A DNA stretch of 64,000 bases, from NCBI GenBank assembly GCA_000092065.1, contig CP000583.1; one strand, given 5' to 3'. Both the position numbers and the translations under genes were made by a program. Below the pieces are notes generated by a model. The model was given only the letters and a program-made list of their open reading frames with translations, did not search any database and was not told the DNA's origin. Positions 3,844 through 61,972 of this stretch are shown one piece after another (within the stretch, counting starts at the first letter, position 1; every line of letters begins with the position of its first letter). Source of the stretch: Ostreococcus lucimarinus (Eukaryota).

Positions 3844-6194
3844 ATGCGCGTGGCGAACTGCCCGAGTCAGGTGCGCGCGCGCGCGGCGCGCGAGGGCGAG
3901 ACGAGCGCGAGCGAGCGCGATTCGAGATTGCGAATCGAATCGCGCGTCGAATCGTGAAACGATGAAACGACGAAGACTGACGGAGACGCGACGCGCGCGG
4001 GACGCAGGAACTGGCGCTGACGAACTGCGCGTTCGTGAACGATGCCGACGTCGAGGCGTGCGCGCCGTACGTGGAGATTGGCGATTGCGTGTTTTTGACG
4101 CGCGCGAGCGCGGAGGTGGCGCCGGGGGCGGTGGGACTCAACGGCGTGCAGCGAAAACAGCTGCGAGTGAGCACCGGAGACGCGGTGAAGTGGCGAAAGT
4201 ACGAACCGCCGAGCCGAGAGTTCGATTGCGCGGGAATGACGATCGAGTTGGAGTTCACGCGACCGGCGTTAGCGGCGAGTTTGATCGCGAAGAACGCGCA
4301 CGAGGGCGTGGACGCGAATTCGATGACGACGATTTTGCGTAGGACATTTAGCTCGCAGGTGTTCACCGTGGGACAAAAGGCGGCGGTTGAGTACTGTGGG
4401 AATAATTATTTGCTTAGTGTGAATCACGTCGTCGTGGAGGGGGCGAGGGAAGGCGTGACATCGCTGCGAGGGATGTTTACGCCGTCGACGGCCGTCGTGT
4501 ACGAGGCGTCGTCCAATAGCGGTATAAAAATTTTAGGTCAAAAAGCGGCGGTGATGAACACAGGGTTGTTCAAGAGTAAAGATTTTAGTTTTTCCAAGCT
4601 CGGAATCGGGGGTCTGGATCAACAATTCGAGGACATCTTTCGACGAGCGTTTTCGTCGAGAATTTTCCCGCAGAGCGTAGTGCAACGCCTCGGGATCCAA
4701 CACGTCAAAGGTATGCTCCTTCACGGTCCCCCGGGTACGGGCAAAACTCTGATCGCGAGGCAAATCGGGAAAATGTTGAACGGCAAAGAGCCGAAAATCG
4801 TGAACGGGCCGGAGGTAATGTCCAAGTACGTCGGACAATCGGAAGAAAACGTTCGTAAGTTGTTTGAAGACGCCGAAGCCGAGTACAAAGCGCGCGGAGA
4901 CGATAGTGATTTGCACATCATAATCTTCGACGAGATCGATGCGGTGTGTAAATCTCGTGGAAGTGTTTCGAGTGGCACAGGCGTGCACGACTCCATAGTC
5001 AACCAGTTGCTTACGAAGATTGACGGCGTCGACGCGTTGAACAACATCTTGCTCATCGGTATGACGAATAGAAAGGATATGTTGGACGAGGCAATCTTGC
5101 GCCCCGGTCGCTTAGAGGTGCACATCGAAATCGGTTTGCCCGATGAGAACGGACGGATACAGATCTTGAACATTCACTCGAATAAGATGAGTGAAAATGA
5201 GTTTCTCGGCGGCGACGTCGACTTGGCGGAATTGGCCAAGCGCACGGGCAACTTTAGCGGAGCTGAGATTGAAGGCTTGGTGAAATCCGCGGTGTCGTTC
5301 GCGCTGACGAGGCAAGTGGATATGAATGATATCGGTGCACCGATTGACGAAGATAATATCAAAGTCACGATGGCAGATTTCGAGCTCGCGCTGCTCGAGG
5401 TCAAACCAGCGTTTGGGGCGTCGACGGATCTATTCGAACGGTGCATGTTGAATGGAATGATTTCGTACGGAGAAAAGTACGAAAAGCTCGTCTCGACCAT
5501 GGAGTCACTCATCGAGCAAGTCAGGGTGTCGGAGAAGACTCCCATGCTGACGTGCTTGCTCGAAGGTGGCGCCGGGAGTGGAAAAACGGCGCTCGCAGCC
5601 GCGCTCGCGATCAAGTCGCAGTTCCCGTTCACCAAGCTCTTGACCTCAGACGGTTTCGTCGGTGCCTCCGAAGCGGCGAAGTGTCAAGCTCTCGCAAAAT
5701 TGTTCGATGATGCCTACAAGTCGCCGGTCTCGTTGATCGTATTGGACGATATCGAGCGCTTGCTCGAGTACGTCGCCATCGGCCCGCGCTTTAGCAACGT
5801 CGTCTTGCAGGCGCTCTTGGTGTTGCTCAAACGTCAACCCCCACCCGGACGAAAGCTGTTGGTGATCGGTACGACGTCGTTACCACTCGTTTTCGAGGAC
5901 ATGGGTCTCAACGCCGCCTTCAACGTCTCCTTACACGTTCCCGAGTTGAGCCCTAGCGAAACCTCCGCCGTGCTCGCCGAGCTCGGCGCCTTTGACGCCG
6001 TCGATCTTCCGCGGGCGTGTCAAGCGCTCCAAGCCCTCACGGGCGACCGCGTGCCGATTAAGCGATTATTCATGCTTCTCGAGATGGCGCGTCACGGCAA
6101 AGACGATCTCGGCGATTCCATGGACGTCGGCGACGGCCGTCGCGTCGTCGCCCTCGACCGCTGGGTCGCCTGTCTTCGCGATCTCGCGCAGTGA
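3844..6194 (+). CDS. NSF: Vesicle-fusing ATPase NSF. Two exons: 3844..3870 and 4008..6194, with intron 3871..4007
   Basis: The large exon carries the N-domain plus D1 and D2 AAA domains ([26 protein letters not shown], second P-loop GGAGSGKT). The large ORF has no in-frame ATG. A 9-codon micro-exon (MRVANCPSQ) joins to ELALTNCAFVND through a GTGCGC...CTGAC...CAG intron. This reproduces the conserved NSF N-terminus (M..ARCPTDELSLTNCAVVNE). Confidence 0.85.
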
Positions 6195-6585
6195 GCGCGT
6201 CGCGCTCGCGCGCGCCGCGCGTCGCGCGCGTCGTCGCCGCGTCGCGCGCGTCTTAGATCTACTACTTCGTATATATCACAATCAAATCTCGCTCTTCGTC
6301 ACCGCGCGCGTCGCCTCTCGCCTCGCCGCTCGATCACCCATCAATCGCCCCGTCCTCCGCGCTCGCTCACTTCTTCGCCGACGACCGCCCGAACAGCCCG
6401 GTGAATCCGTTGACGACGATCCCGTACGTCAATCCCGCGGTCACCGCGCCGACGCGCAGGAACGCGGCGAGCGAGCTCGTCCCCGAGTACGGCCCACCCA
6501 TCGCGCGCGTCGCAGTGCCGGCACCCAGGCAGGCAGTCGACCGGCGACCAGTGGCCGAATGCTGAACACTTAATACTTTTAATTC

Positions 6586-6690
6586 TCGTCGAGTTTTCTG
6601 CGCATTTACCGTGATTTAGAGCTATGCGTTCAAAACTCGCGAATGCGTTTTGTCCAGCCTGCGCAACGCCGATTTCTTAAACCCTTTTCA
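6586..6690. repeat. Copy A of a duplicated ~80-bp element plus an 18-bp motif (TTCTTAAACCCTTTTCAT)
   Basis: It is near-identical (2 mismatches in ~80 bp) to 7762..7842. The 18-mer recurs at 7726..7743. Both copies sit just 3' of plus-strand genes. Confidence 0.8.
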
Positions 6691-6947
6691 TAAGGAATTT
6701 ACCGTACTGTAATTTACCCCCGGGATCTCGCGGGATGATAGGTATAAATCAATTAATATATGTGGTCATACGGCCAAATAGTGAGGCTCCATATGTCCGA
6801 CCGACCATGTCGACACCCGCGACACCCGTGTCAACACCCGCGAGTATGGGTCCATGTTTGATTTGATTCTCGCGCGGGGTTGGCAGGCAATTCACTCACT
6901 CCTCCACGCGTCCGCGTCAGCAATTCACTCCTCGACGCGTCGCGGCG

Positions 6948-7676
6948 ATGAACGCGTACGACTCCATCGAACGCGGCGCTGCCGACGAGTGCGAACCTTT
7001 AACAGGACGACGACCACGGACGTTTACTCTCACGCAACTGCTCGTCGCGTGCGGCGCCGTGTGCGTCTGTGCGATCGGGGCGACGATGTTCGTGAACACT
7101 CACGCTCAACTGGCCGACGCTGGTTATGGTGGCGACTCGATCCAATCCTCTGGTTGTCCAATTCAAGACTGGGTTGATGATTCTTTGTGCGCGGCGAGTC
7201 CGCCCGGCCTATCCGAGTCTAAAAGCCGAGGTCGCGCGCTGCTTGGCTCGCGAAACACATCAAGTGAAACATCAATTGACACATCAAGTGACACATCAAG
7301 TGAAACATCAATTGACAACACATCAAGTGACACATCAAGTGACACATCATCAGACACATCAAGTTCCAATCAAGTGTCCATTCCGTCGTGCGCAAAAATA
7401 CCGCCGCGTCCGAAATCAAGTGATTCGGTAAGCTGCAACGGCCACGGTTGGTGTCATGAAGGCACAACGGCAAGTGGCAACAAGCCACACTGCGATTGCA
7501 ACGCTGGTTATGGTGGATCTCATTGCGAAACGAAGATTCTGAACCTGGAAGACCTCAGTATCAAAGTCGCCGACATCGAGGAGGAGATGGAGAAAATGGC
7601 TGAATCCGCAGTCGAGACCATCAAACTCGAGGAGCAACCGCTGCTGCACGAGCACGGGCACGAGCATGGGGAATGA
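6948..7676 (+). CDS. Type-II membrane protein with a Ser/Thr-rich tandem-repeat (mucin-like) stalk and an EGF-like Cys domain
   Basis: An N-terminal signal-anchor (LLVACGAVCVCAIGA) is followed by (TSS[DE]TSID)n repeats and a C..C.GHGWC..C.C..GYGG.HC EGF pattern. The C-terminus is acidic with an HEHGHEHGE tail. Confidence 0.55.
   Translation: MNAYDSIERGAADECEPLTGRRPRTFTLTQLLVACGAVCVCAIGATMFVNTHAQLADAGYGGDSIQSSGCPIQDWVDDSLCAASPPGLSESKSRGRALLGSRNTSSETSIDTSSDTSSETSIDNTSSDTSSDTSSDTSSSNQVSIPSCAKIPPRPKSSDSVSCNGHGWCHEGTTASGNKPHCDCNAGYGGSHCETKILNLEDLSIKVADIEEEMEKMAESAVETIKLEEQPLLHEHGHEHGE
7255..7368 (+). repeat. Coding tandem repeat (ACATCAAGTGA[AC]-like 9-12 nt units) encoding the Ser/Thr-rich stalk
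   Basis: Directly visible periodicity within CDS 6948..7676. Confidence 0.8.
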
Positions 7677-7725
7677 CACTACTGAGCGACCCACAATTTC
7701 AAGCAAATTCAAGAATAATTTTCAA

Positions 7726-7842
7726 TTTCTTAAACCCTTTTCATATATATCTTATATATATTTCTTGTCGAGTTTTCTGCGCATTTACCGTGATTTAGAG
7801 CTATGCGTTCGAAACTCGCGAATGCGTTTTGTCCAGCCCGCG
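7726..7842. repeat. Copy B of the duplicated element; here the 18-bp motif is followed by the ~80-bp unit
   Basis: See copy A. The order of motif and unit is swapped relative to copy A, and both copies are in direct orientation. Confidence 0.8.
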
Positions 7843-7912
7843 CACGCCCGCGACTGAAATTTGAAACGTTCGCGACGACGCGCGACGCTGGCGCGAGAGC
7901 GAGACGCGCGAC

Positions 7913-8123
7913 ATGCTGCGCGCGACGCGCGGAGGGATGGCGTGCGCGTCGATGGCGCGCGCGCGGGCCGCGCGGGCCGCGACCCCGACGCCGCGATGCG
8001 TCGCGGCGGCGGCGTTCGGACGCGGACGCGCGGGCGCGGGGAAGGCGATGACGGTGCGCTTCGGCGTCGGGGCGACGCGCCGAGGCGCGGCGCGAGGGAA
8101 GTCCGCGAGCGTGGGCGGTGGGA

Positions 8124-8165
<42 letters not shown>

Positions 8166-8770
8166 GCGACGGCGGTGGCGACGGCGCGGCGGGCGGCGTT
8201 CAAACGTTGTGGGCGGCGTATCTCAACGCGCTCGAAAAGAATCCGTTGGCGACGAAGTGCGCGACGAGTGGGGTGCTGAATGCGTTGGGTGATTTGTTTG
8301 CGCAGTTTTCGTTCGATGACGCCGCGAAGAAGGGGATCGATTGGCGTCGGGCGGGCGTGTTTACGTTTCTCGGCGGCGCGTTGGTTGGACCCGCGCTGCA
8401 CTTTTGGTACGGCACGCTCGGGAAGATTGTCACCGCGCAAGGCAGCGCCAAGGCGTTCATCAGCTTGGTTTTAGATCAAGGTTTGTTCGCGCCGGCGTTT
8501 TTGTGCGTGTTTTTGAGCTCGCTGTTCACGATCGAAGGCAAGGCGAGCGAAATCGTTCCCAAGCTCAAGCAAGATTTTGCGCCGACGGTGATGGCGAACT
8601 GGAACATCTGGATCCCTTTCCAGTTCTTGAATTTCCGTTTCGTTCCGCTGAACTTGCAAGTCGCTGCCGCTAACGTCGTGGCGCTGTTATGGAACACGTA
8701 CCTCTCGTGGGCGTCGCACAAGGAAGTCGTCGTCGAGACGGCGAGCAAAGGAAAGAAGAGTAAGAAGTAG
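7913..8770 (+). CDS. MPV17: Mpv17/PMP22-family membrane protein with an N-terminal presequence and a poly-Gly tract
   Basis: Mpv17/PMP22 signature from LWAAYLNALEKNPL through NWNIWIPFQFLNFRFVP. A (GGC)n microsatellite at 8123..8190 encodes G16. Confidence 0.8.
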
Positions 8771-8831
8771 TTCTGGTGGAGGTTAGTTGTTTTTAATACG
8801 ATATACACTACAAGCAAGCGAACAGATGAAA

Positions 8832-10037: not shown

Positions 10038-10080
10038 GGTGCGGAGTTGTGACGTCGAGTGACTTTTTTGAGATTACAGC

Positions 10081-13324: not shown

Positions 13325-13714
13325 GACACGTTTCCAGGCGCCTCGTCAGCGACAAACCCAGTGCCCTCCACACACGTCCACGCAATTCTCTAATGATCGC
13401 CACCACGAACACCATCGCGCGCCCGTGCGTCGCGCAGAGGTGCGTCGCGATGAAACAAAACGCGCGCTCGAACGCGGCTCGTCGCGCGGCGTCGCGCGAT
13501 GGACGACGCGGGCGGGACGCGCGCGGGACGACGACGACGCGGACGACGTCACCGTCGAGCCGCGCGCGCGCGCGCGCGACGCAGAGGACGCGCGCGAACG
13601 CGCGCGAACGCGCGAGCGACGAAGAAGATCGCGCGGTCGCGCCGTCGCCGCGCGTGGACGTTCGAACGGCGCGCGGGAGGCGATGGAGACGCGAGAGGGG
13701 CGACTGACGCGGAT

Positions 13715-14065
13715 ATGGTTTGTTTCGCTCGCAGGACGACGGTTCGCAAGACGCGCGCGGTTCGCGTGCACGCGGGCAAGGGACCGAACGTCGATCGCAC
13801 GACTGGTTATATTGAGAGCGATAACACGGGTAGTGGTAACATCTTTGCGATTGAGCCGCGCCAGTTGTACACGGAATCGCCGACGAGCGACAAGTACGCC
13901 AAGCAAGGTTTGGGCGGTATCGGCGGCGTCATCGTCGCGGTCGGTGTGCTCGGAGCGGTGGCGTTCGCGACGAAGGGTTTGGCCGGCTTCGAAGAAGCGA
14001 ACAATGAGTTCGCAAACTACAACGGACCGAGTGTTTCCGCGCTCGAGCAACAGTTTGAGCGTTGA
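13715..14065 (+). CDS. Small single-pass membrane protein with a basic N-terminal presequence (possible organellar protein)
   Basis: MVCFARRTTVRKTRAV... is followed by a Gly-rich TM helix GLGGIGGVIVAVGVLGAVAFA. The similarity to PsbR-like proteins is weak and the protein is not called as PsbR. Confidence 0.35.
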   Translation: MVCFARRTTVRKTRAVRVHAGKGPNVDRTTGYIESDNTGSGNIFAIEPRQLYTESPTSDKYAKQGLGGIGGVIVAVGVLGAVAFATKGLAGFEEANNEFANYNGPSVSALEQQFER

Positions 14066-19871: not shown

Positions 19872-20866
19872 TTAGTTCATGCGGCGGATGAGCGCGTTGA
19901 TCTTATCTTCGCGGTTACCAGCCATGCCACCTTCGATGAAGTGTTGCTTCTTCACAGTCATCCCGCCGTTCGGGGCGGAGAGCTTGAACGGCCACAAAAA
20001 GTTGGCGCACTCCTTGAAGTGCGGACCGACGGTGTAAATTTCGTGAATCAAGTCTTCGACGCAAATGATCCCCTTGTCGCCGAGGGCTTGCTCAACCACG
20101 GCGTTATCCGTGAGCGGAATGCGCTGCTTGTTCACCTTACCGTAACCACGCTTGTAGATGAGCTCTCTAACCGTCTTCAAGTTCGGGTAACCAAACATGA
20201 TGTACGGCTCCACCTTGCGAAGCTGGTTGAGCGTCGCCTTGTTCACCTTCATGAAAATCCCGTTGTGGATTTGACGCAAGCGAAGGAGCTGGAGAATCTT
20301 CTTCGTCTTCGGGTGAATGTCATTCAAACCGCGCAAGCGCATGACAAACATGAGCTTTTCCTCGGGTTCGACGTAGAAACCACCCTTGGCGCGCGCCTCG
20401 CGCTTGAGACGCACGAGGTCGGCTTCCTGCGCGCGCGAACAGACGCATCGTCGTCGTCGTTAGTCATCGCGTCCAATCGAGCGTTCGCGAGCGCAACGCG
20501 ACGCATCGTAATGTCGCCTCCGCCTATCAATCGCAAGCGCGCATCCAACACGCGTCGCGCTCATCCCAAGGCCGCCGCGCGACGCGCGCGACGTCCCGCG
20601 ACGTCCCGACGAACCCTAAAACAATCCCATCGCGCCCAGTCACATCGCTCGCTCACATCACGCACCTGGTCGCGGTACTCCTTGACATACTTCTCCGCGC
20701 GCTTGAAAATTTCCTCGCGCTTCTTCTCGCCCGCCTTCTTCGCTTCGGCCGCGGCCGCCGCCTTTTGCGACGCCCACTGCTCGTCGCGTTTGCGCTTCTT
20801 CAGCACGGATTCGGGAACGGTGGAAGGCTGCACGTCGCGCGCGCGAAAGCGTCCTCCGTCAGTCAT
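19872..20866 (-). CDS. RPL7: 60S ribosomal protein L7 (uL30). Two exons: 20666..20866 and 19872..20426, with intron 20427..20665
   Basis: Exon 1 (MTDGG...[15 protein letters not shown]...KEYRDQ) joins exon 2 ([19 protein letters not shown]...[14 protein letters not shown]). Together they reproduce full-length L7 (~251 aa). The donor is GTGCGT, the branch CTAAC, the acceptor CAG. Confidence 0.85.
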
Positions 20867-21423
20867 CGTTCGTCGCAAACATATCCATCCACCGATCGCC
20901 CTCGATCTCCCTCCCTCTCGCGCCGCGACCGCGCCGACATCGCCCTCCCATCGACGCATCGACGCGCCGCGCGTTAGGGTCACGCATCGCGCGAATCGCG
21001 TGCACCGTCGCGCGCACCGCGCGCGCATCGCCGATCGACGACGCGCGCGCGCGGTGACGAGTGCGAATGCGCGCGTCACGCGCGGTCGCTTCGCGTTCGC
21101 CGCGCACCATGCTCGCGTTCGCGCGTCGAGGTTAGAGGCCGACGAGGTCGCGATCGACGCGCGACGCGCCCGTCCGCCGGCGCGTCGAGGGTCGTGTGTC
21201 GTCGAGTCTTGTCATGTCCGAATGTCCGAATCTCTGCGGACGGTCGATCTCACATCGGCGCGCGCATCGGATCGTACGGTATTCTCGACCGACGAAGATT
21301 CGCGATAAATCGTTTCGCACTGAATGCCCAGGCGATGCACGAACGACGACGCGCCCGCGGCGCGCGAATGCCGAGCGGATCCGAGGCGCCAGATCGACGC
21401 GCGCGCGACGATTCGCGCGAGCG

Positions 21424-30023: not shown

Positions 30024-31593
30024 ATGTTTTGCGCGATCAGTGGGGCGGCGCCGGCGCGCCCGGTGGTGACGCCGAGAGGCGTGCTGTACGAGAGATCGTT
30101 GATCGTGAAGGCGATCGAGGTGCGCGCGCGAACCGAGGGCGAGGGGAGGGCGATGGGAGGACGCGCGCGGGCGATCGCGGCGAACGGGGCGCGGATGCGA
30201 CGTGAATTGTGACGCGCGAATGCTGACCGGAACGCGCGATTTACGACGATAGGAACGAGGCGAGTGCCCGGTGACGAAAGAATCGCTGAGCGTGGACGAT
30301 TTGATCGAACTCAAGGCGCAGAAATGGGTGAACCCGCGACCGGAGGCGACGATGTCGGTGCCAGGGTTGTTGAGCGCGTTTCACAACGAGTGGGACGCGT
30401 TGATGCTAGAAACGCACACGCTGCGGAAGGAATTACAAACGACCAGGCAAGAGTTGAGTCATGCGTTGTACCAACACGATGCCGCGTGTCGAGTGATCGC
30501 ACGGTTGATGAAGGAGAGAGATGATGCCAGAGACGCGCTCGCGAACGCGAAGGGGTCGGCGAAGCGAAGCGCCGCGGGGGACGCCGAACCGGAATCGAAA
30601 AAGGTCAAGGCGGGACTTCCGGCGGCTGTCGTGGCGAAAATGAATGACGTGCAGAAGGAACTTTCGAGTGGACGCAAGAAGCGCGAAATTTCGAGCGAAT
30701 TGGCGACGATGGGGGATATCTCGGCGTACGAAGCCAAGGTGACGCAAGCTGTGCACAAGACGTCGCCTGCAGGCATCAACGCCGTGGCGATCAAAGCGGG
30801 CGACGATAACGTCATCGCCACGGCGGGTAACGATCATACTGTGGCAATCTTTGACAAAGTAAGCTCGCAGCGCGTTCAGCAGCTCAGCGGACATTCCAAG
30901 AAGGTTCTCGACGTCAAGTTTGTCGGCGACAACGTGTTGTCGTGTGGCGCGGACAAAGTCGTCAAGCTTTGGGGTGCCGATGGCTCTGAGATTGCAACGT
31001 TCGGTGATCACACTGGTGATGTAACCAGCGTCAGCGTGCATCCCTCGAACAGCTATTTTGTGTCCACTTCAACGGACAAGACTTGGGGATTTCACGACCT
31101 TACCACGAGCTCGTGCATCACCTTGGTGAACGACGACACCGATTCTGCCATCACGTGCGCAAATTTCCACCCCGATGGTGTGATTTTGGGAGCGGGCACG
31201 AAGGATTCGGTAGTTAAGCTTTGGGATGCTAAAGATGCGCGCAAGTTGCTTCAATTAGACGGCCATGCGAGCGAGATTACCGGTTTGTCTTTCTCGGAAA
31301 ATGGCTACTATCTCGCCTCTGCGGCTAAGGACGGTGTGAAGATTTGGGACCTTCGAAAGTCCAAGCTCGTTCACGAGATCGAATGTGCTGGCGCACAGGG
31401 CGTTGCTTTCGACCACAGCGGGTCTTACATCGCCACTGGCGGTCACAATGCGTCCGTTTACCAGGTGAAAGGCAAGTGGGAATTGGTCAAGGAGTTTGAG
31501 GTGAAGAAGGCTGTCAAGGCTGTCGCCTTCGGCGGCGACGCGCGGTCGCTCGTCGTCGCTAGTGCCGACCATAACTTGCGTATCTTCGCTTAG
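30024..31593 (+). CDS. PRP19: Pre-mRNA-processing factor 19 (U-box E3 plus WD40). Two exons: 30024..30119 and 30253..31593
   Basis: Exon 1 (MFCAISGAAPARPVVTPRGVLYERSLIVKAIE) is the U-box start. Exon 2 continues ERGECPVTKESLSVDDLIELK, then the SHALYQHDAACRVIARL coiled coil and 7 WD repeats. The 133-bp intron is GTGCGC...CTGAC...TAG. Confidence 0.85.
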
Positions 31594-36124: not shown

Positions 36125-37143
36125 TTACAATACGACGGCGGCGGCGGCGCGGTCAAAGTCTCGCTCCAAAGACGCGATTTTCGTCAAAGCTTCGTTCGCC
36201 ACTCCGGCCTGCTTCATGGCGTTCACGAACCTGGCCGAGGACTTGCCGAGGTGCAGCGCGCACGCGGCTAAATTCGCGAGCGTCTCGCCATCCTTCGGAT
36301 CGATGGCCACGGCTTCTAGTAAATCACGCTCGGCGTCTTCGTAACTATTCATCATCATCGAACACACCGCTGAACCATTATACAGCTTCGGCGTCCACTT
36401 GTACTTATCGCCGAGCTCTTGGTAAATGTACGAGGCGTCTTGAATCTTCTTCCCGCCGCTCGCGCAGTTCGCCCACGCGCACGCGAGCTGCGCGATGGTC
36501 GAATCGTCATCGATCTGTTGCATCATCTTCGCTTGCTTTTCCGCCAACTCCGCGCGATCCATCTTACACAGCAAGTTCACCATCATCGCGTTCAACTCCA
36601 GCGACGATCCTCCGTGACACAGCCTCATCGCCTCGACGTAATTCCCCTCTCGCGCGAGCAGCGTCGCCCCGACGAGTCGCGTCGTCGCGTCCCCAGACGC
36701 GTGTTCGTCCGCCAGCATCTCACCGATCGCCTCCATCGCGCTCTGTCTCGCCTTTTCGTCCTCGTTCGTCTCGTACAGCGCCAGCAATTTCACCGCTCGC
36801 AGCGCCGCCGGCGCGTCCTCCGCCGTCTCGCGCGCGACGATCTGTTCGTTCACCCATCGGGCGCCGTCTCGTCAGTCCTTCGTCGTCCCGGGCGCTCGCG
36901 CGCGCGATCGGCGCTCGATCGGCGCGTTCGTTTCTCCGTCCGGTCCCTTCGCGGCGTTTCGCGCGCGTCGCGTCGTCGTCGCACCTCGCCCTCGCCCATG
37001 GCGACGCGCGATCGCGCGACGAACGCGTCGCGCCTGACGGCGTCGACGCCGTCCGCGTCCGCGCACGCCCTCGCGGCGTCGACGCACTCGGCGTAGGCGC
37101 CGATGTGGAAGTAGTTCTCGCAGTGAAACAGCGCCTCGGACAT
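36125..37143 (-). CDS. COPE: Coatomer subunit epsilon. Two exons: 36985..37143 and 36125..36841, with intron 36842..36984
   Basis: Exon 1 (MSEALFHCENYFHIGAYAEC...VAMGEGE) matches the COPE N-terminus. Exon 2 (IVARETAED...ERDFDRAAAAVVL) matches the rest. The intron is GTGCGA...CTGAC...CAG. Confidence 0.8.
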
Positions 37144-37227
37144 GGCGCGGGCGCGCGCGCGGCGAAGTGCGCGGCGACCGAGGTGGCGAGGGCGTCGCAG
37201 CGCGACGCGCGCGCGAATCGCGTCGCG

Positions 37228-38175
37228 ATGCGCGCGCGCGCGCGCGACGCGAGCGACGCGAGCGACGAGGACGACGCGTCGACGTCGGACGCGCCGCGCG
37301 CGCGCGCGAGCGGACGCCGCGCGCTGGATTACGTGCGATTCGACGACGGGAACGCGCACGGAAGGGCGTTCGAGCGGTCGGCGCTGCGACGAACGATGGC
37401 GCGCGATCCGGCGTTCGATTCCATGGCGAGGCACCGGAAGGTGAAGAAGGAAATCACGGAGGCGCACGGGGCGCTCGCGCAGGTGCGGCGCGCGCTTCGG
37501 GCGGGGGGCGGGGGGGGGGAAGACGGCGGCGGCGACGGCGACGGCTTGGTTTTGGTCGAGCTGTGCTCGGGACGGGGATTCGTGTCGCTCGTGCTCGCGG
37601 ATGCGTTTCCGAAGGCGCGAATATACATGATAGATCGCGATACGACCATGGATGTGAGTCACGTCGAGACGTACGGGGGGGCGCGCATGTCGTTTCACGC
37701 GCTCGATTTACACTCGACGGCGTGCGAGGAGTTCGTCCGAGGCGTCGCGGACGACGCCGAGACGCGCGGACAGACCGTGGTTTTGGTCGGCGTGCATTTG
37801 TGTGGCACGTTATCGCATCGCGCGATCGAGCTATACGAGCGAATAGAACGCGCGGTGGCGATCGTGGTCGCCCCGTGCTGCTTGCCGCAGCGGCGACGGC
37901 ACGACGTGTTCGGTTTTCACTGCAAGGACATCGCTCGATCGATCGGTAACGGCGTCACCCCGTTCCAGTGTTGGTGCACGCAGCTTTATTTTCGATTACC
38001 GTTGACTTCGAAGCGAAACATGACCATCGATCACGACGTGCTTTCGACGCAGAACACGTTTCTCGTCGCGCGGCGTCCCCTCGATTCGGCGCTCGACGCG
38101 CTGTCCATCTCGACGCCTTTGTCGCCCTCCATCGTCCCCGGTCGTTCGTGCGCCAAATGGCGATTAGTAAAGTAA
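37228..38175 (+). CDS. SAM-dependent methyltransferase (Methyltransf_32 / TRM13-like fold)
   Basis: LVELCSGRGFVSLVL...IDRD...VLVGVHLCGTLS matches the SAM-binding and HxCG signatures. The track start at 37105 is GTG and overlaps COPE exon 1 on the other strand. First ATG at 37228. Confidence 0.45.
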   Translation: MRARARDASDASDEDDASTSDAPRARASGRRALDYVRFDDGNAHGRAFERSALRRTMARDPAFDSMARHRKVKKEITEAHGALAQVRRALRAGGGGGEDGGGDGDGLVLVELCSGRGFVSLVLADAFPKARIYMIDRDTTMDVSHVETYGGARMSFHALDLHSTACEEFVRGVADDAETRGQTVVLVGVHLCGTLSHRAIELYERIERAVAIVVAPCCLPQRRRHDVFGFHCKDIARSIGNGVTPFQCWCTQLYFRLPLTSKRNMTIDHDVLSTQNTFLVARRPLDSALDALSISTPLSPSIVPGRSCAKWRLVK

Positions 38176-38429
38176 ATCGTAGGCTTAGCAAACTTAGCTC
38201 ACGCGTTGAAATCGACGACGCGCATTGCGTTGAAAGTCGTTCGCGCCGATCGCCAGCCCCGAACCGCCGCGATGACTCAGCCTCGCGCCGCGGAGCGCGA
38301 GACCCCCGACGGGCGACTGCATATCGCGACGCGAGCGAGCGTCGAGCGTGGACAGAAGACGGACGTAACCGTCGCGCTCGCACTTCTTTCGCGTCGACGC
38401 GAGGAGCGAGTTCACGCGCTCGATCGAAA

Positions 38430-39858
38430 ATGTTCGCCGTAACGAACGGCGCCTCCGCGCGCGTCGCCCTCGGCGCTCGGACCAATCGCGCGGTCGAACG
38501 CCGCGTGAGAGCGGTCGCCGCGCCCGCGCGATGCGGCGCGATTGAAAACACAGCTTCGTTCACTTGTGCGCGCCGCCGTGAGGTGCGTGAAGCGCTCGAG
38601 CGATGGAAACGAAGGCGAAACGCGATCGCTGGACGTTGGGGATCGTTTGAAAACTCTGTCGACGAGGGAGGGGCGAGAGCGACGCGTGTCGGCGGTGGGG
38701 AGGACCGAGAGATGTACTGACGCGTAGAGATGATTTTTTGCAACGATACAGGAAGTCGTGCGATCGCGAAGATGCGTCGTGGAGGCGAGACCGGCGGCCC
38801 GCGGGAGCGTCGTGGCGAAGGCGTCGTTGTCCGACATGGACGTGAAGACGAAGACGGCGGTGTACTTTTTTCTTTGGTACTTCTTCAACATCGTGTTCAA
38901 CGTGTATAACAAGTCGACGTTGAACGTGTTTCCGTACCCGTGGCTGATCTCGACCTTGCAACTCGCGGCGACGAGTCTTTGGATGTTAACCGTGTGGGCG
39001 ACAAAGGTGCAACCGAAGCCAGTCGTGTCGAAAGTGTTCCTTTTGGCCGTCGCTCCGGTGGCTTTGTTCCACACCATCGGGCACGTTTCTGCTTGTGTGA
39101 GTTTCAGTAAGATGGCGGTATCTTTTACGCACGTCATCAAGGCTGCTGAGCCGGTTTTCTCCGTCATACTCTCTGGCCCGCTCCTCGGCCAAACGTTCGC
39201 CCCGGCGGTGTGGTACTCTTTGATCCCCATCGTCGCCGGTTGCTCGATGGCAGCCATGAAAGAGGTTAGTTTCAATATTGTTGGCTTTCAAGGCGCCATG
39301 ATCAGCAATCTCGCGATGGTTTTGCGTAACATCACGTCAAAGAAATCGTTGAACGATTTCAAGCACATCGACGGCATCAACTTGTACGGCATTCTGGGCA
39401 TCATCGGTCTCTTCTATCTCGCTCCCGCGGCGTATGTGATGGAAGGTGCTCAGTGGTCTGCTGGGTACGCCGCCGCCGTTGCCAAGGTTGGCGAGCAAAA
39501 GCTTTGGCAAATGCTCTTCTTGTCTGGCATCTTCTATCACTTGTACAACCAAGTGAGTTACCAAGCTCTCACGAACATCACCCCCGTGACTTTCAGTGTA
39601 GGCAATGCCCTCAAGCGCGTGGCCGTGATCGTTGCTTCTGTTATTTACTTCAGAAATCCGGTCTCACCTTTGAACGCGGCGGGTTCTGCATTGGCCCTGC
39701 TCGGTGCGTACTTGTACACAAAGGCTTCCGAGTCGAAGAAATCCGCAGCGGCCCCCACCGCCATGACGAAGGCAGATCGATCTTACTCTGCCTACAACGA
39801 GCAATTCATCCAGACGACTGGTTTAACTGGTTTGACGCTCGAAGAATTCGATGTGTAA
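38430..39858 (+). CDS. Plastidic phosphate translocator family (TPT/PPT/GPT-like). Two exons: 38430..38582 and 38752..39858
   Basis: The TPT core (FFLWYFFNIVFNVYNK...HVSACVSFSKMAVSFTHVIKAAEPVFSV...LSGIFYHLYNQVSY). The large ORF lacks an upstream ATG. A 51-codon Ser/Ala/Arg-rich exon joins through a 169-bp GTGCGT...CTGAC...CAG intron. This gives a ~90-aa transit-peptide-like extension. Confidence 0.75.
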
Positions 39859-39916
39859 TCCCTGACATCAATACGCCTACGCTCTTCTAATAACACAACA
39901 AGTCTAGCACCTAGTT

Positions 39917-41083
39917 CTAAATGTCTAAGCACGTGGCCGTATCATGAAACCTGAGGAGCTCCTCTTTTCGTGCAGTGTCAGGCAAGTACGTTGCGAGACC
40001 CAAGAGGATCTCCATTTCTCCATCACACAACTCATACGCCCGCGCGTAGAAAGATTTTATCGGGATATGACCCTCTTGAAAGTCCCTCGCCGCGGTACGA
40101 AGCTCCATGTAAGCCGTTTCGCCAATGCGGTGCATCGCCTCTAATGCCAGCTTTGCGCTCGTCTCCGGAGCTTTACCTCGCGTCGGCTGTGAATCACGCT
40201 TTGCACTCCCTCGCTGATTCGACTCTATTGTCGCTTGCTTTTCGAAGAACTGCCGTATGAGTTGAGAGACTTCACCGTTTCCGGTCACGAGTTCGTTATG
40301 AGGCTTCGTGATCTCGCACGACTTCTCAGACGTAGTTTCAGCATTTTCAGCATCATTTGTAGCCTCTCGTGTCGTTTCGGTGACTTTTCCACCGCCGTTG
40401 CGACTATTTATGCTTCGCCGACGCCCCCAGGCGATGATGGAAAATCGCGGGTCGTTGTTTGATTTTGCCTTTGGCACGCCGTGTTTGAACCTTTTATTCA
40501 CCTCAGACGTGAAGGCAAACACGTCACCGTTGTTCTGAGGAAACGTAAACGTATTTCCACTCGGTTCGTGCAAGAAAATCAATTCTCGCGATCCACCGAA
40601 CGAGGCTCCCATCGTGAAATCTTCGCGTTGCGCTCGACCGCCGTACGCGTGCGAGTCGTGATGAAACGGTTTCCAGTCCGTCCCGTCTCGATAAAAATTC
40701 ATTCTCGTCGCGTACACTTCGACGTCGAAATAATCCGCCATCGCATCGACGACTCTCTGAAACGTTTCCGAAAAATCTGGGTTCTCGTGTTTCAGATGCT
40801 TCGACCAGTTCACCATGCCGCCGAGCTCCGCCGCGCGCTCCATCTCCCGCGCCAAATTCGCCAGCACGGAATAGTCGCGCGCCGAGGCGTGAAAATTCTG
40901 CAAGTAAATCGCGTTCCCGCTCAGCACGGACTCGAAATCGGCGAGCAGCCGCCCGTCCACCATCGCCGCTTCGCTTCGCAGCGCGCCTCGCGCGAACCGA
41001 AGCGCGTCGTTCTTCGCCCTCGTCCCCTCCCCGTCCTCGCCCTCGCGCTTCTTCACGAACCTCGGCGCGGACGCGGACGCCAT
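39917..41083 (-). CDS. AlkB-like Fe(II)/2-oxoglutarate dioxygenase (2OG-FeII_Oxy_2)
   Basis: NFYRDGTDWKPFHHDSH (HxD) and a distal RFKHGVP His, with a jelly-roll-type spacing. First ATG at 41083. Confidence 0.5.
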   Translation of the reverse strand: MASASAPRFVKKREGEDGEGTRAKNDALRFARGALRSEAAMVDGRLLADFESVLSGNAIYLQNFHASARDYSVLANLAREMERAAELGGMVNWSKHLKHENPDFSETFQRVVDAMADYFDVEVYATRMNFYRDGTDWKPFHHDSHAYGGRAQREDFTMGASFGGSRELIFLHEPSGNTFTFPQNNGDVFAFTSEVNKRFKHGVPKAKSNNDPRFSIIAWGRRRSINSRNGGGKVTETTREATNDAENAETTSEKSCEITKPHNELVTGNGEVSQLIRQFFEKQATIESNQRGSAKRDSQPTRGKAPETSAKLALEAMHRIGETAYMELRTAARDFQEGHIPIKSFYARAYELCDGEMEILLGLATYLPDTARKEELLRFHDTATCLDI

Positions 41084-41200
41084 GTTCGCGCCTTCGACCG
41101 CGTCCCGCGCGCGCCGTCGCCGCGTCGCGCTGCGCGGCGTCGCGCCCCGTCGCCGCGCGCGTCCCCGCCCGCGCCGAGCGCGCGACATCGCGCCGCGTAC

Positions 41201-41308
41201 TTCATGTGAAAAAGGTCCATCAACAGCGTCACGTAGTTCATATGAAAAAGGTCCATCGACAGCGTCACGTAGTTCATATGAAAAAGGTCGATCAACCGCA
41301 ACACGCAG
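41201..41308. repeat. Three tandem copies of a 36-bp unit (TTCATATGAAAAAGGTCCATCGACAGCGTCACGTAG)
   Basis: The copies are near-perfect, AT-richer than their surroundings and contain an ACGT core (GTCACGTAG). They end 8 bp before the ATG of gene 41316. Confidence 0.85.
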
Positions 41309-41315
41309 TTAATAA

Positions 41316-51632: not shown

Positions 51633-52783
51633 ATGGCGATGTCGGCGAACCCGTTCATGGCGCTCGACGAAGACGCCCCGCGCGCGCCCGCGCCGAGCGC
51701 GAAAGCGGCGAGCGCGCCCGCGAGTAAGCCGGCGACGAAAGGTGCGCGCGCCGCGCGCGACGCGAGCGCCGGGGTGGGGCGGAGACGATCGCACGGCGGC
51801 GAATGGGAATTTAACCGAGCGTTCACGCGGTCGGGACGACGATGCGCGCGCGCGAACCCGCGGACGCGCGCGACGCGACGGGAAAAGCAATGCGCGGATG
51901 AGGGTAAACCCCAATCGAGGGCTGACGATGACTGACGCTTTGATTTTTTATCTCTCACGCAGTCGCTGCGCCCGCGCGAAGCAACGGTGGCAGCAAAGCT
52001 AAGCCTGCGAAGGCGACTCGTGAATTCGAGGGCGAAGTTATCGGTGCCGAAGGCAGCAAGGGGTTCCACGCCAAGGGCGGACGAGGCGATCATAAAGGTC
52101 ACTCCCGCTCGGCTCGTCGCGGCGGACGCGGCGAAGGCGGCGAAGGCCGCCAACGCTCTCGACGCGACTTTGATCGTCGTGACGCCTCGGGTCGAGGCCA
52201 CGATGGCCACCGTGGCGGTGCCGGTAAGGGCAACTGGGGCAAAGCCGGCGACGAACTCGCCGAGCTCGGCGCCAACACCGTCGATGAAAGCGAAACCGAA
52301 CCTGAGGTCGTGGATAACTCCAGCGAGCTCACGTTCGCGCAAGCCGAAGCGCTCAAGGCCGAAAAGCGAGCGGCCCTGGCCGCTCAATGGAAGAGGCCTG
52401 AAGCTAAGGTACTCGATGGCTCTGCTCTCGAAGGCCTCAAGCTCATGTCTGGCGACGCCGACGACGCCGACTTGGACTTTGGCGGCGTCGGCGTGAAGAG
52501 CAAGCGTGACCGCACGAAGAACACCACTTCCAAGCAAAAGGTTGACGTTGGCTTCCGCATTGCTTCGACGCAACCGGCGGATGACCGTGATGACCGCGAC
52601 GACCGTCGCGGCGGTCGCGGCGGTCGCGGCGGTCGCGACTCTGGCCGTGGCGGTCGCGGTGGCCGCGACTCCGGCCGAGGTGGCCGTGGAGAAAGCTCTC
52701 GCGGTGGCCGTGGCGGTGGTGGACGTGGAGCCAACATCAAAATTGAAGACACCTCCGCCTTCCCGACGCTCGGTGGCAAGTAA
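51633..52783 (+). CDS. Stm1/SERBP1/HABP4-family RGG-box mRNA-binding protein. Exon 1 runs 51633..51723 (or ..51741); exon 2 runs 51963..52783
   Basis: Exon 1 (MAMSANPFMALDED, the Stm1_N motif). Exon 2 carries GNWGKAGDELAE (the HABP4 core), RGG repeats and a terminal AFPTLGGK (plant RGGA ends QFPSLGGK). The intron has two in-phase candidate donors (GTAAGC at 51724, GTGCGC at 51742), a CTGAC..CTGAC branch region and a polypyrimidine CAG acceptor at 51962. Confidence 0.65.
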
Positions 52784-54108: not shown

Positions 54109-54130
54109 TTTTTATTCACATCCAAAAGAA

Positions 54131-56438: not shown

Positions 56439-56562
56439 CGTCCGTTCTCGAGGCGACGTGTGCGGGTGCGACCTCCAGCCAAGCCCGCCAGACGTCCACG
56501 TGTGACGTGCGGCGACGAGGCGGGCGATGAATCGAGCCGCGACGGTGACGATAGAAACGTAA

Positions 56563-57600: not shown

Positions 57601-57653
57601 ACGTAGCTCTTAGCGTAATTCATTTCTATAGATATCTACTACATTTCATCCAT

Positions 57654-60566
57654 CTACCTCAAATACTGCGCAACACGATGTGCACGCTCGAATATAGGAT
57701 CCAAGAATGCATTGCTTGAGCGGTGGATTTCGCTTATGAAGTGTTGCATGGCGGCCTCATCATCGAGCTCTAACGCGAACTTTGACTCAAATCTAAGCAA
57801 AGCTTTTTCGTAGTCTTGATTTATGTTGATGTCAGGGATATTCGCGTCTGCCATCAGGCTGAAAAGATTCAACAGCAACACCACCGACTCACTCTTTCGT
57901 AAGATGTTGTATGCTTCGCAACAGTAAGTCTTAAACTCACTGAAGTACTCGCCCATCGCTTCGACCATCTCTTTGCAGAGCTTCATCGATGGGGGAGAAA
58001 TCTTTGGATCACGTCCCATGATGAATCCAAAGTCAATGTGAAACAACCTTCCATCTGAGGCCAGCATCAAGTTGTCCAAGTGTCGGTCCCCCACGCCCAG
58101 CAGATACGTAATCACCGAGTACCCAGCACAACTCTTGACGAAGTTCATCATCGATGTCATCGTACATCCGTTCGGGCCGTGCGGGTCGGGATTGTGTAAA
58201 GCTATGTATGTCGTCAGCTTCTCGTGTTCCTTGAGGATGTCAGCAAGCCCTTGGGACTTGACAAACTCAATGAGTCCTGTATCATTTCCAGTGGCGAGTA
58301 CACGGTACGAAGTCAATTTCAAATCAAGATTTTCTCGCTTCAAAAGCTTGTCCATCAATGAAATCATCTGCACGCAGAGTTGATCTTGCCGTAAGTCATC
58401 GCCCTTCTTGAAGATCATCGTTGCGCTGTCCCCGGTGCTGTTGGCGAAATATAATTAATAAAAAAAATAAAGTCGAATGTGAAATAATTACTCACAGCGT
58501 CTGGAACGCGAGCTTCAATGGGCTCAGCGCAGATTTGAAAACATTACTTTCACTGAAACATGAATGATTTAACCACTCGTCGAAAACGTGCAGAAATTGA
58601 GATTTACCTCGCAAGTATGCCAGTCGTCAATACCTGAGCGAAAATTAAATAATTAGACCGTGAGAAGACAAACGAAAGCTCGCAATTCTGAACGTACCGT
58701 CGGATTCAACGGGTTGGGAATGGCCTGAGGGAACGATGTTAACACAGCACCAAGCGTATTGTCACTAGAGAGAATGGCCTGCGAAGTTAATCGCGTCAGC
58801 TCCCGAATATTTAATTAATTCAGAAATAATAATTGAACGTACCCTCAGACGCTCGACTTTACGCGCCCCACGAAGCGTGTTAACTTCTTGAGTAATGATC
58901 TACCCACGTAACGTCAGAAACGAATTAATTCGACGTAATTGATCGAAAACCGTACCGTAATCTTTTCCATCAGTTCCCGCTGGAATTTCAGTGTCTCCCA
59001 AACACTACGTCCTCGTGTATCCTTCGCCCTACTAGCTCGCTCGAACATGCGGAATGCGCTCATGCTACGTTCCGCTGCTAATCCCTCCCATCCAACTTGC
59101 AAGTACCTGCGACAAAACGCGTCAGAACCAATCTTGATACATTTAATTTAATTTAATTAATTCCACGAGGTGGAGTTCTTTGCACTAATACGTACCAGTA
59201 CAAATAGTTCCCGACGACTTCGTTCGCGACTGCGCGTTCGACTAAAAATTTCGCGAGTTCGTTGTCGTCGGCTGTTTCGTAGCGTAACGCCTGTTTGCAT
59301 TTGCGAAGAAAATTTGTTAGTGAACCCATTTAATTTAACACATCGAGCACAGAGCGCACTGAGACATAGAGTATCGACAACATGTGCGCAAACGATCCAT
59401 ACCTGAACTAACTGCAGCAAATATAGCAATAGATCTTCATTCTCAGCTTGTCTCAGGATGGAAACCGCGTAACGACGTACTTCGCTGTTCGAGAAGGTTG
59501 GTGTCAGAAGTTCCAACGCTGCGGCTGGGCCGATGGGCGCCCACTCGCGCATCAGTTGCACTGAGGCCTGCGTTTCAGCCGGATCTGACCAGTCGACACA
59601 CTTAAGGAACTTTGTTAACGCCCTTGGATCGTGACTTATGGCGAATCTAAACTTCCACAGCAAATTTTGCGATTCCATGTCCAGCGGTCGCGTGGGTGGG
59701 AGTTGGATAATTGCCGACAGCCTGCGCTTCTCGGCTCCATCTGGCTTCAACTCCATATCAATAACGCCACGACCGACACTACGCGAAAGCTTTTGATGCT
59801 TACGCTCAGCCGGGTTTTCTAACATCAAATTAACCTCGTCGTCGACGAGCCAAGTCAAGCGCTGCCAACTGTGAATCTCCAGCGGCTCCACGTCTTCTCG
59901 ACGCTCGCGAAAAATCACTGGGCGCACGTACACGGGCAGCTCTACCAAGAGTTGGAAGAAGTCATCAGTCGCCTGGGCTATACGCAACTGCATACTTCGA
60001 GCATCTCGTATGCGAGAAAACACCAAATTATCCAACCAGTTCACCGAAGGCAAAGTTCCTTGCTCATACTGCACCAAGAAACTCTCGAGCTGCTGGAGCT
60101 CCGCCTGTTGCTCCATGAACTTGGCGCCAAGTTGATCGTACTCTTTCTTCGACTCACGAGCCGTCGAGAGCGCTAAACAACGCAAACCTTGTAATAATCG
60201 ATCATCGTCCCCAAAAATATCCACTCGAGAGTATCCCAACACGGTGTTCGGCAACTTTCTCGCCGAAAGTATTCTAAATTCGAGAGACGTCTCACGAGGA
60301 AGATCTCTCACTTTGATGGGAAATCTCAGCTTTTCCTTCCACTCAGCCATTCCATCGGCGTGAACAACCATCGTTGTAGAAACTTCATTCGTAAGAGGTT
60401 CCTCGTTCGACAGCAAACGAGCGCTCACAAGAATTTCACTCTCCACGGTTCCCACTCGCGAGCGAGGCAGTTTGCCGTACAGCGCCTTGACGTGCACGTT
60501 GAAGTCTAACGAGACATCTCTGCTTGAAAAGACCTTCAAGTTCTCATCTTGAACCACGTCGGTCAT
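57654..60566 (-). CDS. VPS34: Phosphatidylinositol 3-kinase class III (Vps34). Eight exons: 59403..60566, 59196..59290, 58956..59106, 58843..58899, 58698..58778, 58608..58633, 58496..58552, 57654..58437
   Basis: Exon 1 carries the C2 and helical (PIK) domains and ends LLLYLLQLVQ. Small exons encode [84 protein letters not shown] and SESNVFKSALSPLKLAFQTL. These are collinear with the human linker ([65 protein letters not shown]). The last exon is the kinase domain (GDDLRQDQL...DRH..DFG). All splice phases are consistent. Donors are GTATGG, GTACGT (x3), GTACGG, GTAAAT and GTGAGT. Confidence 0.75.
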
Positions 60567-60922
60567 CTCGAACGACCTTTTCGCCCCCCAATCGGTTCGC
60601 ACGTGCGCTAATCCACCGACTCGACCGATAACCGAATGTCGTCGGCTTTTGAATCTTCACTCGCGTCCGTCAATCCTGCGTTGCCCGCCGAGTCCGCGTG
60701 GCACACGCTTGAATAACCCACAACGCACTGGTTGCCGTCTCGCTCGCCCGCGCGCGCTCGTGCGGTTGCGCGCAGTCTGCGGTGCGCCAACGCGAACGCG
60801 ACGGGAGGAAAAAAAGCTCAGCGCGTGTGGCGCCAAAATTCCCCAGACGAGAACAGGTCGAGCAGACGCCGCCACACGAGTACGTTCAGACGGCATTCGA
60901 CGGCGTCCGCGACGCTGAGACG

Positions 60923-61972
60923 ATGCTGGCGTGTAACGCATGCTGGTGTGACCTAGACTCTGGATCGGCGTACATCGCGGCGTGCGATCACGTCTTCTGT
61001 GCGTGCGAAAGACGCGTGTGCTCTCGACCTCGACCGTTTAGGTTGCGGTTTTATTCGAATACTTCCCTCGCTCGAAGCGCGCGCATGGCGCGAGTTCGTA
61101 GAATCTGACGACAGTTGATCGACACAGGTGAAAAGGATGTGCACCTCGGCCTCGAGCAGCGACAGTGCGCGGTGTGTGCGACGAAGATGGAAGAGCGAAC
61201 TATTCGAGTCTCGGAAGTTCAACCCGACCTCGGCGAGCTTCAACGCAAGCTGACTGGCCTCAACCCGAACGACATGCTCACCGCCGTTGCGTACGGATTA
61301 AAATTTTGGGACGATCAACTCGAGCTTCGATACAGAACTGAGCTTGAAAAGTCGTTCACGAGCGCGCAAAGAAGCGCTGAGATGTACAAGAGGAAACTTC
61401 AGGTGTGTCGTCGCCTCTTGAAACGCCACATGCCATGCAAACTAACCTGATCGCACCTCCAGGACGTGCACAACGCTTATAAGAGAGCCAAGACGAAACA
61501 AGATGAACTTGCCGCTCAGTTAAAGGAACGAGAGAATGATATTGAAGAGTTACAGCATCGCTACGAAGAGAAGAGCAGAGAGAAGCGTCGTTTGGAAGAT
61601 TCAGCTGGAAGAGGCAGACCGAGCCTGGGACCACAGTTTCAGGCACGCACGGCACCTATGATGCCAGAGACTGCGGGTCGAATCGATACTCGAGGTCGTA
61701 CCGAACCTGATGGTTGGCTGCAACAACAACGGGTCTCGTCTAGCGAACTCCGCAGTCATCGTAGCTCCGAGCAACTTCACAGGAATTTACCGCAGCGTCG
61801 CACCAGTCTCACGCGCAGTTTCGACAGCGGATTGACACCTCCATCAAATTCACGCGACTCACACGAGCGCACATTTCGAGCTCTTTCTCCGTACACGCGT
61901 CAGGCAGTCGAACCACCTTCTCGGCCCGGACGTGATTCCGTCGGACTGTTCTCGAAACGACGCATATTCTGA
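60923..61972 (+). CDS. HEI10: HEI10/CCNB1IP1-like RING E3 ligase (meiotic crossover factor family). Three exons: 60923..60998, 61128..61402, 61463..61972
   Basis: The N-terminal MLACNACWCDLDSGSAYIAACDHVFC matches HEI10 (LLCNYRKCRIKLSGYAWVTACSHIFC). The second Cys pair QCAVCAT and a coiled-coil middle region are also present. Introns are 129 bp (GTGCGT..CTGAC..CAG) and 60 bp (GTGTGT..CTAAC..CAG). The spliced product is ~287 aa against 277 aa for human HEI10. Confidence 0.55.

Follow-up and report, generated by a model that had tools for sequence, protein, structure and literature searches.

The question raised by a 64,000-nucleotide (nt) stretch of nuclear DNA from Ostreococcus lucimarinus CCE9901 (the window, meaning the whole stretch) is what the short interruptions near the 5′ ends of several of its genes are, and what kind of splicing machinery reads them. 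A sequence-only reading had proposed that small upstream exons, joined to the main open reading frame (ORF) across introns with GTGCG donors, CTGAC-like branch motifs and CAG or TAG acceptors, restore seven gene models (NSF, TPT, PRP19, COPE, RPL7, an Stm1-like gene and HEI10), and that this amounts to a yeast-like constrained splicing code in a compact GC-rich genome. Eight genes of the window carry such introns, at least ten in all (Table 1), the eighth gene encoding a protein of 125 amino acids (aa). The introns are almost certainly of the ordinary U2 spliceosomal type and belong to the ‘canonical’ class of the O. lucimarinus nuclear genome and of the Mamiellophyceae, which does not extend to the low-GC outlier part of chromosome 2. 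When an intron is removed, a short 5′ coding exon, of 3 to 159 nt, becomes continuous with the main ORF, and each intron, if kept, shifts the frame or brings in an in-frame stop. The idea of a yeast-like code is supported by transcripts, annotation and the published consensus.

Spliced proteins were built from the junctions of the sequence-only reading and matched by exact sequence to a collection of 15 billion proteins. The exact spliced products led to transcript-derived contigs (loci L0xx) in Logan assemblies of sequencing runs, at the JGI and in the ENA, which were aligned to the window by BLAST; both flanks matched at 99–100% identity with the predicted interval precisely deleted. As a strict test, 25 + 25 nt across each splice junction were searched for in the contigs as an exact string. 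Exact spliced junctions were found for eight of the ten introns, showing their excision directly. The 50-nt strings occur in eight contigs for NSF (L013–L020), 13 for RPL7 intron 2, three for PRP19 (L021–L023), one for COPE (L032), six for TPT (L001–L006) and eight for the Stm1-like gene (L024–L031), in agreement with the junctions proposed for these six introns. Eight junction pairs had been proposed in total, all with a GT start and a YAG end on the coding strand, and all proved real: HEI10 intron 2 is the same as in the NCBI gene model, and HEI10 intron 1 is supported by orthology and a restored RING finger.

It could be argued that the apparent introns are unspliced and that the split ORFs arise from frameshifts in the assembly, from pseudogenes or from translation that starts internally, as both TPT and HEI10 begin at internal methionines at NCBI (TPT without its intron, HEI10 without intron 1). 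However, the exact intron-less junctions are present in dozens of independent contigs that are otherwise 99–100% identical to the window, and the upstream exons encode conserved parts of the proteins, i.e. the PRP19 U-box, NSF-N, the HEI10 RING cysteines and the COPE N-terminus. With this explanation already refuted by transcript contigs for eight of the ten introns, we give it practically no chance of being correct.

The spliced protein is identical, residue for residue, to XP_001416600.1 for NSF, XP_001416612.1 for PRP19, XP_001416898.1 for COPE and XP_001416618.1 for the Stm1-like gene with donor 51742. All four entries belong to O. lucimarinus CCE9901, on a chromosome record of 982,987 bp, and so assign the window to this strain. 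Compared with PDB and Pfam homologues, the spliced N-termini run gap-free through the junctions, with one homologue excepted at HEI10 junction 1. The NSF N-terminus aligns in this way to the NSF-N structures 1QDN and 1QCS, and Pfam CDC48_N matches it from residue 1. Residues 1–122 of PRP19 align near gap-free, from residue 1 and with no gap at the junction, to PRP19 in spliceosome structures including 8xi2 and 5mqf. Coatomer_E covers COPE residues 2–288 at profile positions 2–288 of 290, and HABP4_PAI-RBP1 matches the Stm1-like protein at 29.3 bits; Pfam searches of the spliced proteins agree with the gene identities. The exon 1 sizes proposed earlier for NSF, PRP19, COPE and TPT (9, 32, 53 and 51 codons) match the spliced models, and the roughly 30 codons proposed for the Stm1-like gene are in fact 36 codons plus 1 nt. 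Its donor had been placed at either 51724 or 51742. The second is the one found in transcripts; the first would encode a product of 303 aa that the protein collection lacks, and its junction is in no contig.

Table 1. Intron-bearing genes of the window and their introns (a slash marks the exon–intron boundary; CDS, coding sequence)
Feature	Coordinates	Strand	Length	Phase	Exons or splice signals
NSF (vesicle-fusing ATPase) CDS	3844..6194	+	737 aa		exon 1 3844-3870 (9 codons), exon 2 4008-6194
NSF intron	3871..4007	+	137 nt	0	cag/GTGCGCG ... AGACTGACG ... ACGCAG; branch A 27 nt from 3′ end
125-aa gene, XP_001416604.1	13393..14065	+	125 aa		exon 1 13393-13439, exon 2 13735-14065; absent from the sequence-only reading
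125-aa gene intron	13440-13734	+	295 nt		gag/GTGCGTC ... CGACTGACG ... TCGCAG
RPL7 (uL30) CDS	19872..21110	-	239 aa		exon 1 ATG only 21110-21108, exon 2 20827-20666, exon 3 20426-19872
RPL7 intron 1	20828..21107	-	280 nt	0	atg/GTGCGCG ... TGACTGACG ... GTGCAG; absent from the sequence-only reading
RPL7 intron 2	20427..20665	-	239 nt	0	cag/GTGCGTG ... TGACTAACG ... GCGCAG
PRP19 CDS	30024..31593	+	478 aa		exon 1 30024-30119 (32 codons, first half of U-box), exon 2 30253-31593
PRP19 intron	30120..30252	+	133 nt	0	gag/GTGCGCG ... ATGCTGACC ... CGATAG
Coatomer epsilon (COPE) CDS	36125..37143	-	291 aa		exon 1 37143-36985 (53 codons), exon 2 36841-36125
COPE intron	36842..36984	-	143 nt	0	gag/GTGCGAC ... 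GGACTGACG ... GAACAG
TPT/GPT-family plastid phosphate-translocator CDS	38430..39858	+	419 aa		exon 1 38430-38582 (51 codons, transit-peptide-like), exon 2 38752-39858
TPT intron	38583..38751	+	169 nt	0	gag/GTGCGTG ... GTACTGACG ... ATACAG
Stm1/HABP4/SERBP1-like CDS	51633..52783	+	309 aa		exon 1 51633-51741 (36 codons + 1 nt), exon 2 51963-52783
Stm1-like intron	51742..51962	+	221 nt	1	aag/GTGCGCG ... TGACTGACG ... ACGCAG
HEI10/CCNB1IP1-like RING E3 ligase CDS	60923..61972	+	286 aa		exons 60923-60998, 61128-61402, 61463-61972
HEI10 intron 1	60999..61127	+	129 nt	1	tct/GTGCGTG ... AATCTGACG ... ACACAG; not in NCBI model
HEI10 intron 2	61403..61462	+	60 nt	0	cag/GTGTGTC ... AAACTAACC ... CTCCAG

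For HEI10, the evidence comes from comparison with other species and from gene models. The RING residues C4, N5, C7, C21, H23 and C26, encoded by exon 1, and C39 and C42, encoded by exon 2, are the same in all of ten distant full-length homologues (the homologue search started from the O. tauri homologue P0091). In the alignment of these ten, junction 2 is gap-free throughout and junction 1 in nine, with P0157 carrying two extra residues at the latter. Pfam zf-RING_5 matches residues 4–43 at 27.6 bits, just under its gathering cut-off of 27.9 bits, and the JGI label for a 168-aa fragment of the protein is E3 ubiquitin-protein ligase CCNP1IP1. Reading through either intron leads to an in-frame stop. 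At the O. tauri locus, introns of 154 and 61 nt occur at the same positions and in the same phases, with the signals GTGCGTC, GCCTGACC and TAG in intron 1 and GTGCGCA, AGCTGACC and TAG in intron 2, and removing both gives exactly the curated protein CEF97074.1/XP_022838471.1. The exons of the two species measure 76, 275 and 510 or 513 nt and are 67–82% identical, compared to 53–56% for the introns. In the NCBI protein XP_001416621.1, of 241 aa, Met46 of the 286-aa model is the first residue; the intron 2 junction is the same, and exon 1 and the RING finger are missing. Orthology together with the restored RING finger argues strongly that intron 1 is real, and the NCBI prediction and the O. tauri comparison suggest that intron 2 is as well.

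Two related sequences show irregularities at the same positions. An older O. tauri protein, OUS43796.1 (‘putative bZIP protein’; L041 601–1679, KZ155826.1), is the HEI10 orthologue and carries insertions of 20 and 9 aa exactly at the two junctions, the result of introns spliced wrongly in that model; the correct model is CEF97074.1, of RCC4221. A more distant Ostreococcus-like homologue with 56% identity (P0093, from an ENA contig of 817 nt) lacks 21 residues exactly at the intron 2 junction (KRKL/KDREN).

TPT is the other gene for which the spliced model improves on the existing one. The NCBI protein XP_001416614.1 is intronless, has 340 aa and begins at an internal methionine at 38836, without the 79 N-terminal residues of the 419-aa product, which is present on 15 transcript contigs. 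Pfam TPT matches residues 85–373 of the full protein. The 79-residue extension is rich in Ala, Arg and Ser and, judged by this composition, resembles a plastid transit peptide. We also observed that the metatranscriptome contigs L001–L004 (window 36930–41290) cover at least three adjacent genes on both strands, with the TPT intron alone removed, and that L001 also includes, on the other strand, the COPE intron in unspliced form; contigs that merge several genes in this way arise because overlapping transcripts of a compact genome fuse in assembly.

Taken as a set, the introns share their splice signals closely. The donor is GTGCG in nine of the ten, the exception being GTGTGT in HEI10 intron 2, and AG precedes it at positions −2/−1 in seven. 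CTRAC is present in every intron, ACTRAC in eight, ACTGAC in six, ACTAAC in two and the longer form GACTGACG in five; the acceptor is always YAG, and CGCAG in four. The branch A lies 17–33 nt before the last intron base, at 26–33 nt in eight introns and at 17 and 19 nt in those of HEI10. The statement that donors are almost always GTGCG[ACT] therefore stands for seven of the eight introns first proposed and fails for HEI10 intron 2, and a CTGAC or CTAAC motif is found in every intron as claimed.

These signals are the ones already published for this genome. Irimia and Roy (2008, PLoS Genet, PMC2483917) analysed 560 introns of O. lucimarinus confirmed by expressed sequence tags and reported, for those outside chromosome 2, an ‘atypical consensus GTGCGTG’ 5′ splice site of 4.8 bits. 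Of these introns, 87.2% carried ACTGAC and 66.5% GACTGACG, the branch-to-AG distance peaked at 20–35 bp, and CGCAG acceptors were preferred. Verhelst et al. (2013, GBE, PMC3879977) gave AG/GTGCGT and NCTGAC as the canonical consensus of two Micromonas strains and stated that such introns, with splice and branch motifs conserved, occur throughout the Mamiellophyceae. Lanier et al. (2008, PMC2367439) reported introns in 20–25% of transcripts, which fits the eight intron-bearing genes among roughly 40 here. With a GC content of 47–69% and about ten introns in those genes, the present material is compatible with the intron-poor compartment of the O. lucimarinus genome. Compared with the canonical introns of this organism, the introns of the window agree in donor, in the ACTGAC/GACTGACG branch, in the CGCAG/YAG acceptor, in being GC-rich, 60–300 nt long and unique in sequence, and in the proportion of genes that carry them (~20%); only the shorter branch-to-AG distances of the HEI10 introns (17 and 19 nt) and the single GTGTGT donor differ. 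The interpretation given in the sequence-only reading is thus correct and had been published down to the motif strings; the splice-signal architecture has been known for this genome since 2008, and only the corrections to the TPT and HEI10 models are new.

The canonical 5′ end of U1 small nuclear RNA (snRNA) is AUACUUACCUG, and the branch sequence pairs with the GUAGUA box of U2 snRNA with its A bulged out. Each intron would be defined by a near-invariant 5′ splice site (A)G/GUGCG(U/C)G, a branch sequence (G)ACUGAC(G) or CUAAC and a YAG acceptor, and the donor would pair with the standard U1 5′ end (ACUUAC), leaving +4C mismatched. Mismatch of a +4 pyrimidine with U1 is also seen in other intron-poor lineages. 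This mismatch could instead point to a spliceosome that is modified or additional, such as one with a U1 whose 5′ end is a compensating ACGCAC, which would read the GUGCG donors and ACUGAC branches and be distinct from that of chromosome 2, a possibility that Irimia and Roy raised as worth exploring (PMC2483917). The same work, however, reported the O. tauri snRNAs as single copies only, and when five Mamiellales genomes were searched with a U1 model whose pairing positions were left free, a single standard candidate was obtained per species wherever one was identified; U1 pairing regions are standard in the Mamiellales despite GYGCGY donors (Roy and Bowser 2022, bioRxiv 10.1101/2022.06.08.495308). 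A separate machinery is thus very unlikely, and an ordinary U2-type spliceosome remains the preferred reading. Signals of the U12 type (RTATCCTT donor, TCCTTAAC branch) had no match in the ten donors and branch regions.

The likeness to intron-poor yeasts has been discussed as convergence (PMC2483917). Shared with hemiascomycete yeasts of the Saccharomyces cerevisiae type are an intron-poor genome, near-invariant donor and branch sequences, a concentration of introns at the 5′ end, first coding exons that are short or consist of the ATG alone (a feature of ribosomal protein genes) and a standard U1 despite the +4 pyrimidine. The sequences themselves differ, GUAUGU and UACUAAC in yeast compared to GUGCGU and ACUGAC here, and yeast introns are AT-rich and occur in ~4–5% of genes, whereas those here are GC-rich, are carried by about 20% of genes and have an independent green-algal origin. 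Although they behave like yeast introns, those of the window lie outside that class (GTATGT donor, TACTAAC branch), their donors being GTGCG and their branches ACTGAC, with two ACTAAC.

A further explanation for the common motifs would be descent from one mobile family, the introns being copies of it as the introner elements (IE) of Micromonas are. Micromonas belongs to the same algal class, and IE-C of strain RCC299 carries the same GACTGACG branch motif (PMC3879977). The families IE-A to IE-D, however, are multi-copy and near-identical, and the introns of the window are alike in splice signals only. An all-against-all BLAST of the ten gave only GC-rich low-complexity matches of at most 30 nt, and no further copy of any of them was found elsewhere in the window. 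Their lengths are spread over 60 to 295 nt, and the HEI10 introns share their positions with O. tauri yet have diverged in sequence. These data make a mobile origin extremely improbable, and canonical introns of independent sequence are preferred.

The signals also carry statistical weight when taken in combination. The chance expectation was obtained from dinucleotide shuffles of the window, both strands included, with 200 shuffles for the composite signal. The composite AG/GTGCG ... CTRAC ... YAG occurs seven times in the window and all seven copies are real introns, compared to a mean of 2.1 ± 1.5 in the shuffles, none of which reached seven; the remaining nine AGGTGCG sites have no branch-plus-acceptor arrangement downstream. 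Branch sites account for six of the eight ACTGAC copies and all five GACTGACG copies (binomial P ~1e-10, with introns making up 1.4% of the strand-specific sequence). ACTGAC itself is depleted about threefold, with eight copies against 23.5 ± 4.9 in the shuffles, which are dinucleotide-based and not codon-controlled, and its scarcity outside introns might reflect selection against cryptic branch sites. A looser scan (GT[GA][CTA]G, CTRAC, YAG and ORF continuity) returned 62 candidates and was uninformative, most of them being false, as ORFs that arise at random are long at ~58% GC. Scanned for Rfam families and tRNAs, the window gave no match, with no intronic small nucleolar RNAs and no snRNA genes.

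The introns are also strongly biased towards the 5′ end, with relative positions in the CDS of 0.004–0.41 and a mean of 0.135 (Kolmogorov–Smirnov test against uniform, P = 6e-5, ten introns). The stronger claim that all of them fall within the first ~200 nt of the CDS fails for HEI10 intron 2, at nt 351. Such bias is a general property of intron-poor genomes, and together with a strict consensus it is usually explained by intron loss through recombination with reverse-transcribed mRNA, plus selection for strong sites. The same causes, loss by way of reverse-transcribed mRNA and strong-site selection in an intron-poor genome, may have acted here. Our literature searches turned up nothing on a 5′ bias of introns that was specific to Ostreococcus.

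Several observations weigh against the assignment or against details of the gene models. Bare GTGCG is not enriched, with 263 copies on both strands compared to ~301 expected from the dinucleotide shuffles; it is common in GC-rich sequence, and the donor motif alone therefore predicts little. Contig look-ups recovered no O. lucimarinus transcript for either HEI10 intron; as a meiotic gene, HEI10 may be barely expressed in vegetative cultures. The TPT start codon, ATG 38430, is inferred and not fixed by the data. Likewise, the data leave undecided whether NSF starts at 3844 or 3832, and hence whether its exon 1 has 9 or 13 codons. The second ATG is in frame four codons before the annotated start (MSGT-MRVANCPSQ; window 3832–3846, plus strand), and the NSF transcripts, which begin at or before 3799, include it. 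Finally, RPL7 intron 1 is kept in many assembled contigs, so that splicing is not always complete.

RPL7 is the gene in which the earlier proposal departed furthest from the transcripts. Exon 1 had been given 67 codons; it consists of the ATG only, followed by a 280-nt intron that was overlooked although it fits the proposed consensus perfectly. On the minus strand the mRNA reads ...gcgagcATG/GTGCGCGG...GATGACTGACGG...GTGCAG/CCTTCC, and the ATG at 20866 taken as the start lies inside the branch motif GATGACTGACGG of intron 1. The junction ...gcgagcATG/CCTTCCACC of this intron is seen in L033–L040, and the fully spliced contigs L036–L040 have the junction ATG/CCTTCC. Some of these carry a 5′ SMART oligo, which places the transcription start near 21134–21141 (5′ untranslated region from about 21141). 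The 239-aa protein, beginning MPSTVPES, matches XP_001416891.1 and an MMETSP transcript. The 251-aa form given by the sequence-only reading exists only as the ORF of contigs with intron 1 retained and intron 2 spliced out (L007–L012), and we rejected it as the mature protein.

Intron 1 is kept and intron 2 removed in 19 contigs (with the 251-aa ORF), compared to 10 that are fully spliced. In the retaining form, the true AUG opens an ORF of 83 codons that ends at a TGA within the branch motif GATGACTGACGG, and this TGA overlaps an ATG in frame with the remainder of RPL7. Given this overlap, retention might serve as a switch or give an extended L7. It is nevertheless unlikely that intron 1 is a regulated, often retained intron that acts as an autoregulatory or nonsense-mediated decay switch or, after reinitiation, yields an N-terminally extended L7. 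We also noted an analogous retained form in another Ostreococcus clade (P0022, MPMSSHTQ/PSTVPES), in which the extension peptide is not conserved.

As had been predicted, ORF callers truncate such genes, and the shortened proteins are found on metagenome contigs. Metagenome pipelines report NSF with 719 aa (154 contigs), PRP19 with 440 aa (165 and 580 contigs), RPL7 with 180 aa (87 contigs), TPT with 248 or 366 aa and HEI10 with 168 aa (212 contigs), and the NCBI eukaryotic annotation likewise truncates TPT (340 aa) and HEI10 (241 aa). Prokaryote-style gene callers thus shorten Ostreococcus genes systematically, and the short forms, present on hundreds of contigs, populate the protein catalogues of marine metagenomes. 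The claim that seven gene models are rescued holds for TPT and HEI10, where the spliced models are better than those of NCBI; those of NSF, PRP19, COPE and the Stm1-like gene were already NCBI's, and that of RPL7 was worse. Two NCBI models of 2007 can therefore be corrected, XP_001416614.1 by 79 N-terminal residues and a transcript-proven intron, and XP_001416621.1 by its RING finger. The scientific novelty is small, as the signals, the contrast with chromosome 2, the yeast likeness and the lack of U1 co-evolution have all been published for the genus. The case does show that a lineage-specific splicing code can be recovered de novo from sequence alone, and that an ATG within a branch motif can mislead such a reading.

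The gene for the 125-aa protein was detected by scanning the window for ACTGAC. Its intron has a perfect GTGCGTC, CGACTGACGC and CAG signature, and the spliced product is identical to XP_001416604.1. The contiguous 378-nt gene is present on nine transcript contigs, and the splice is thus confirmed. An alternative donor at 13425 gave a product absent from the protein collection, and 13440 is preferred. A Pfam search of the protein gave no match; its N-terminus is transit-peptide-like, and it has one hydrophobic segment.

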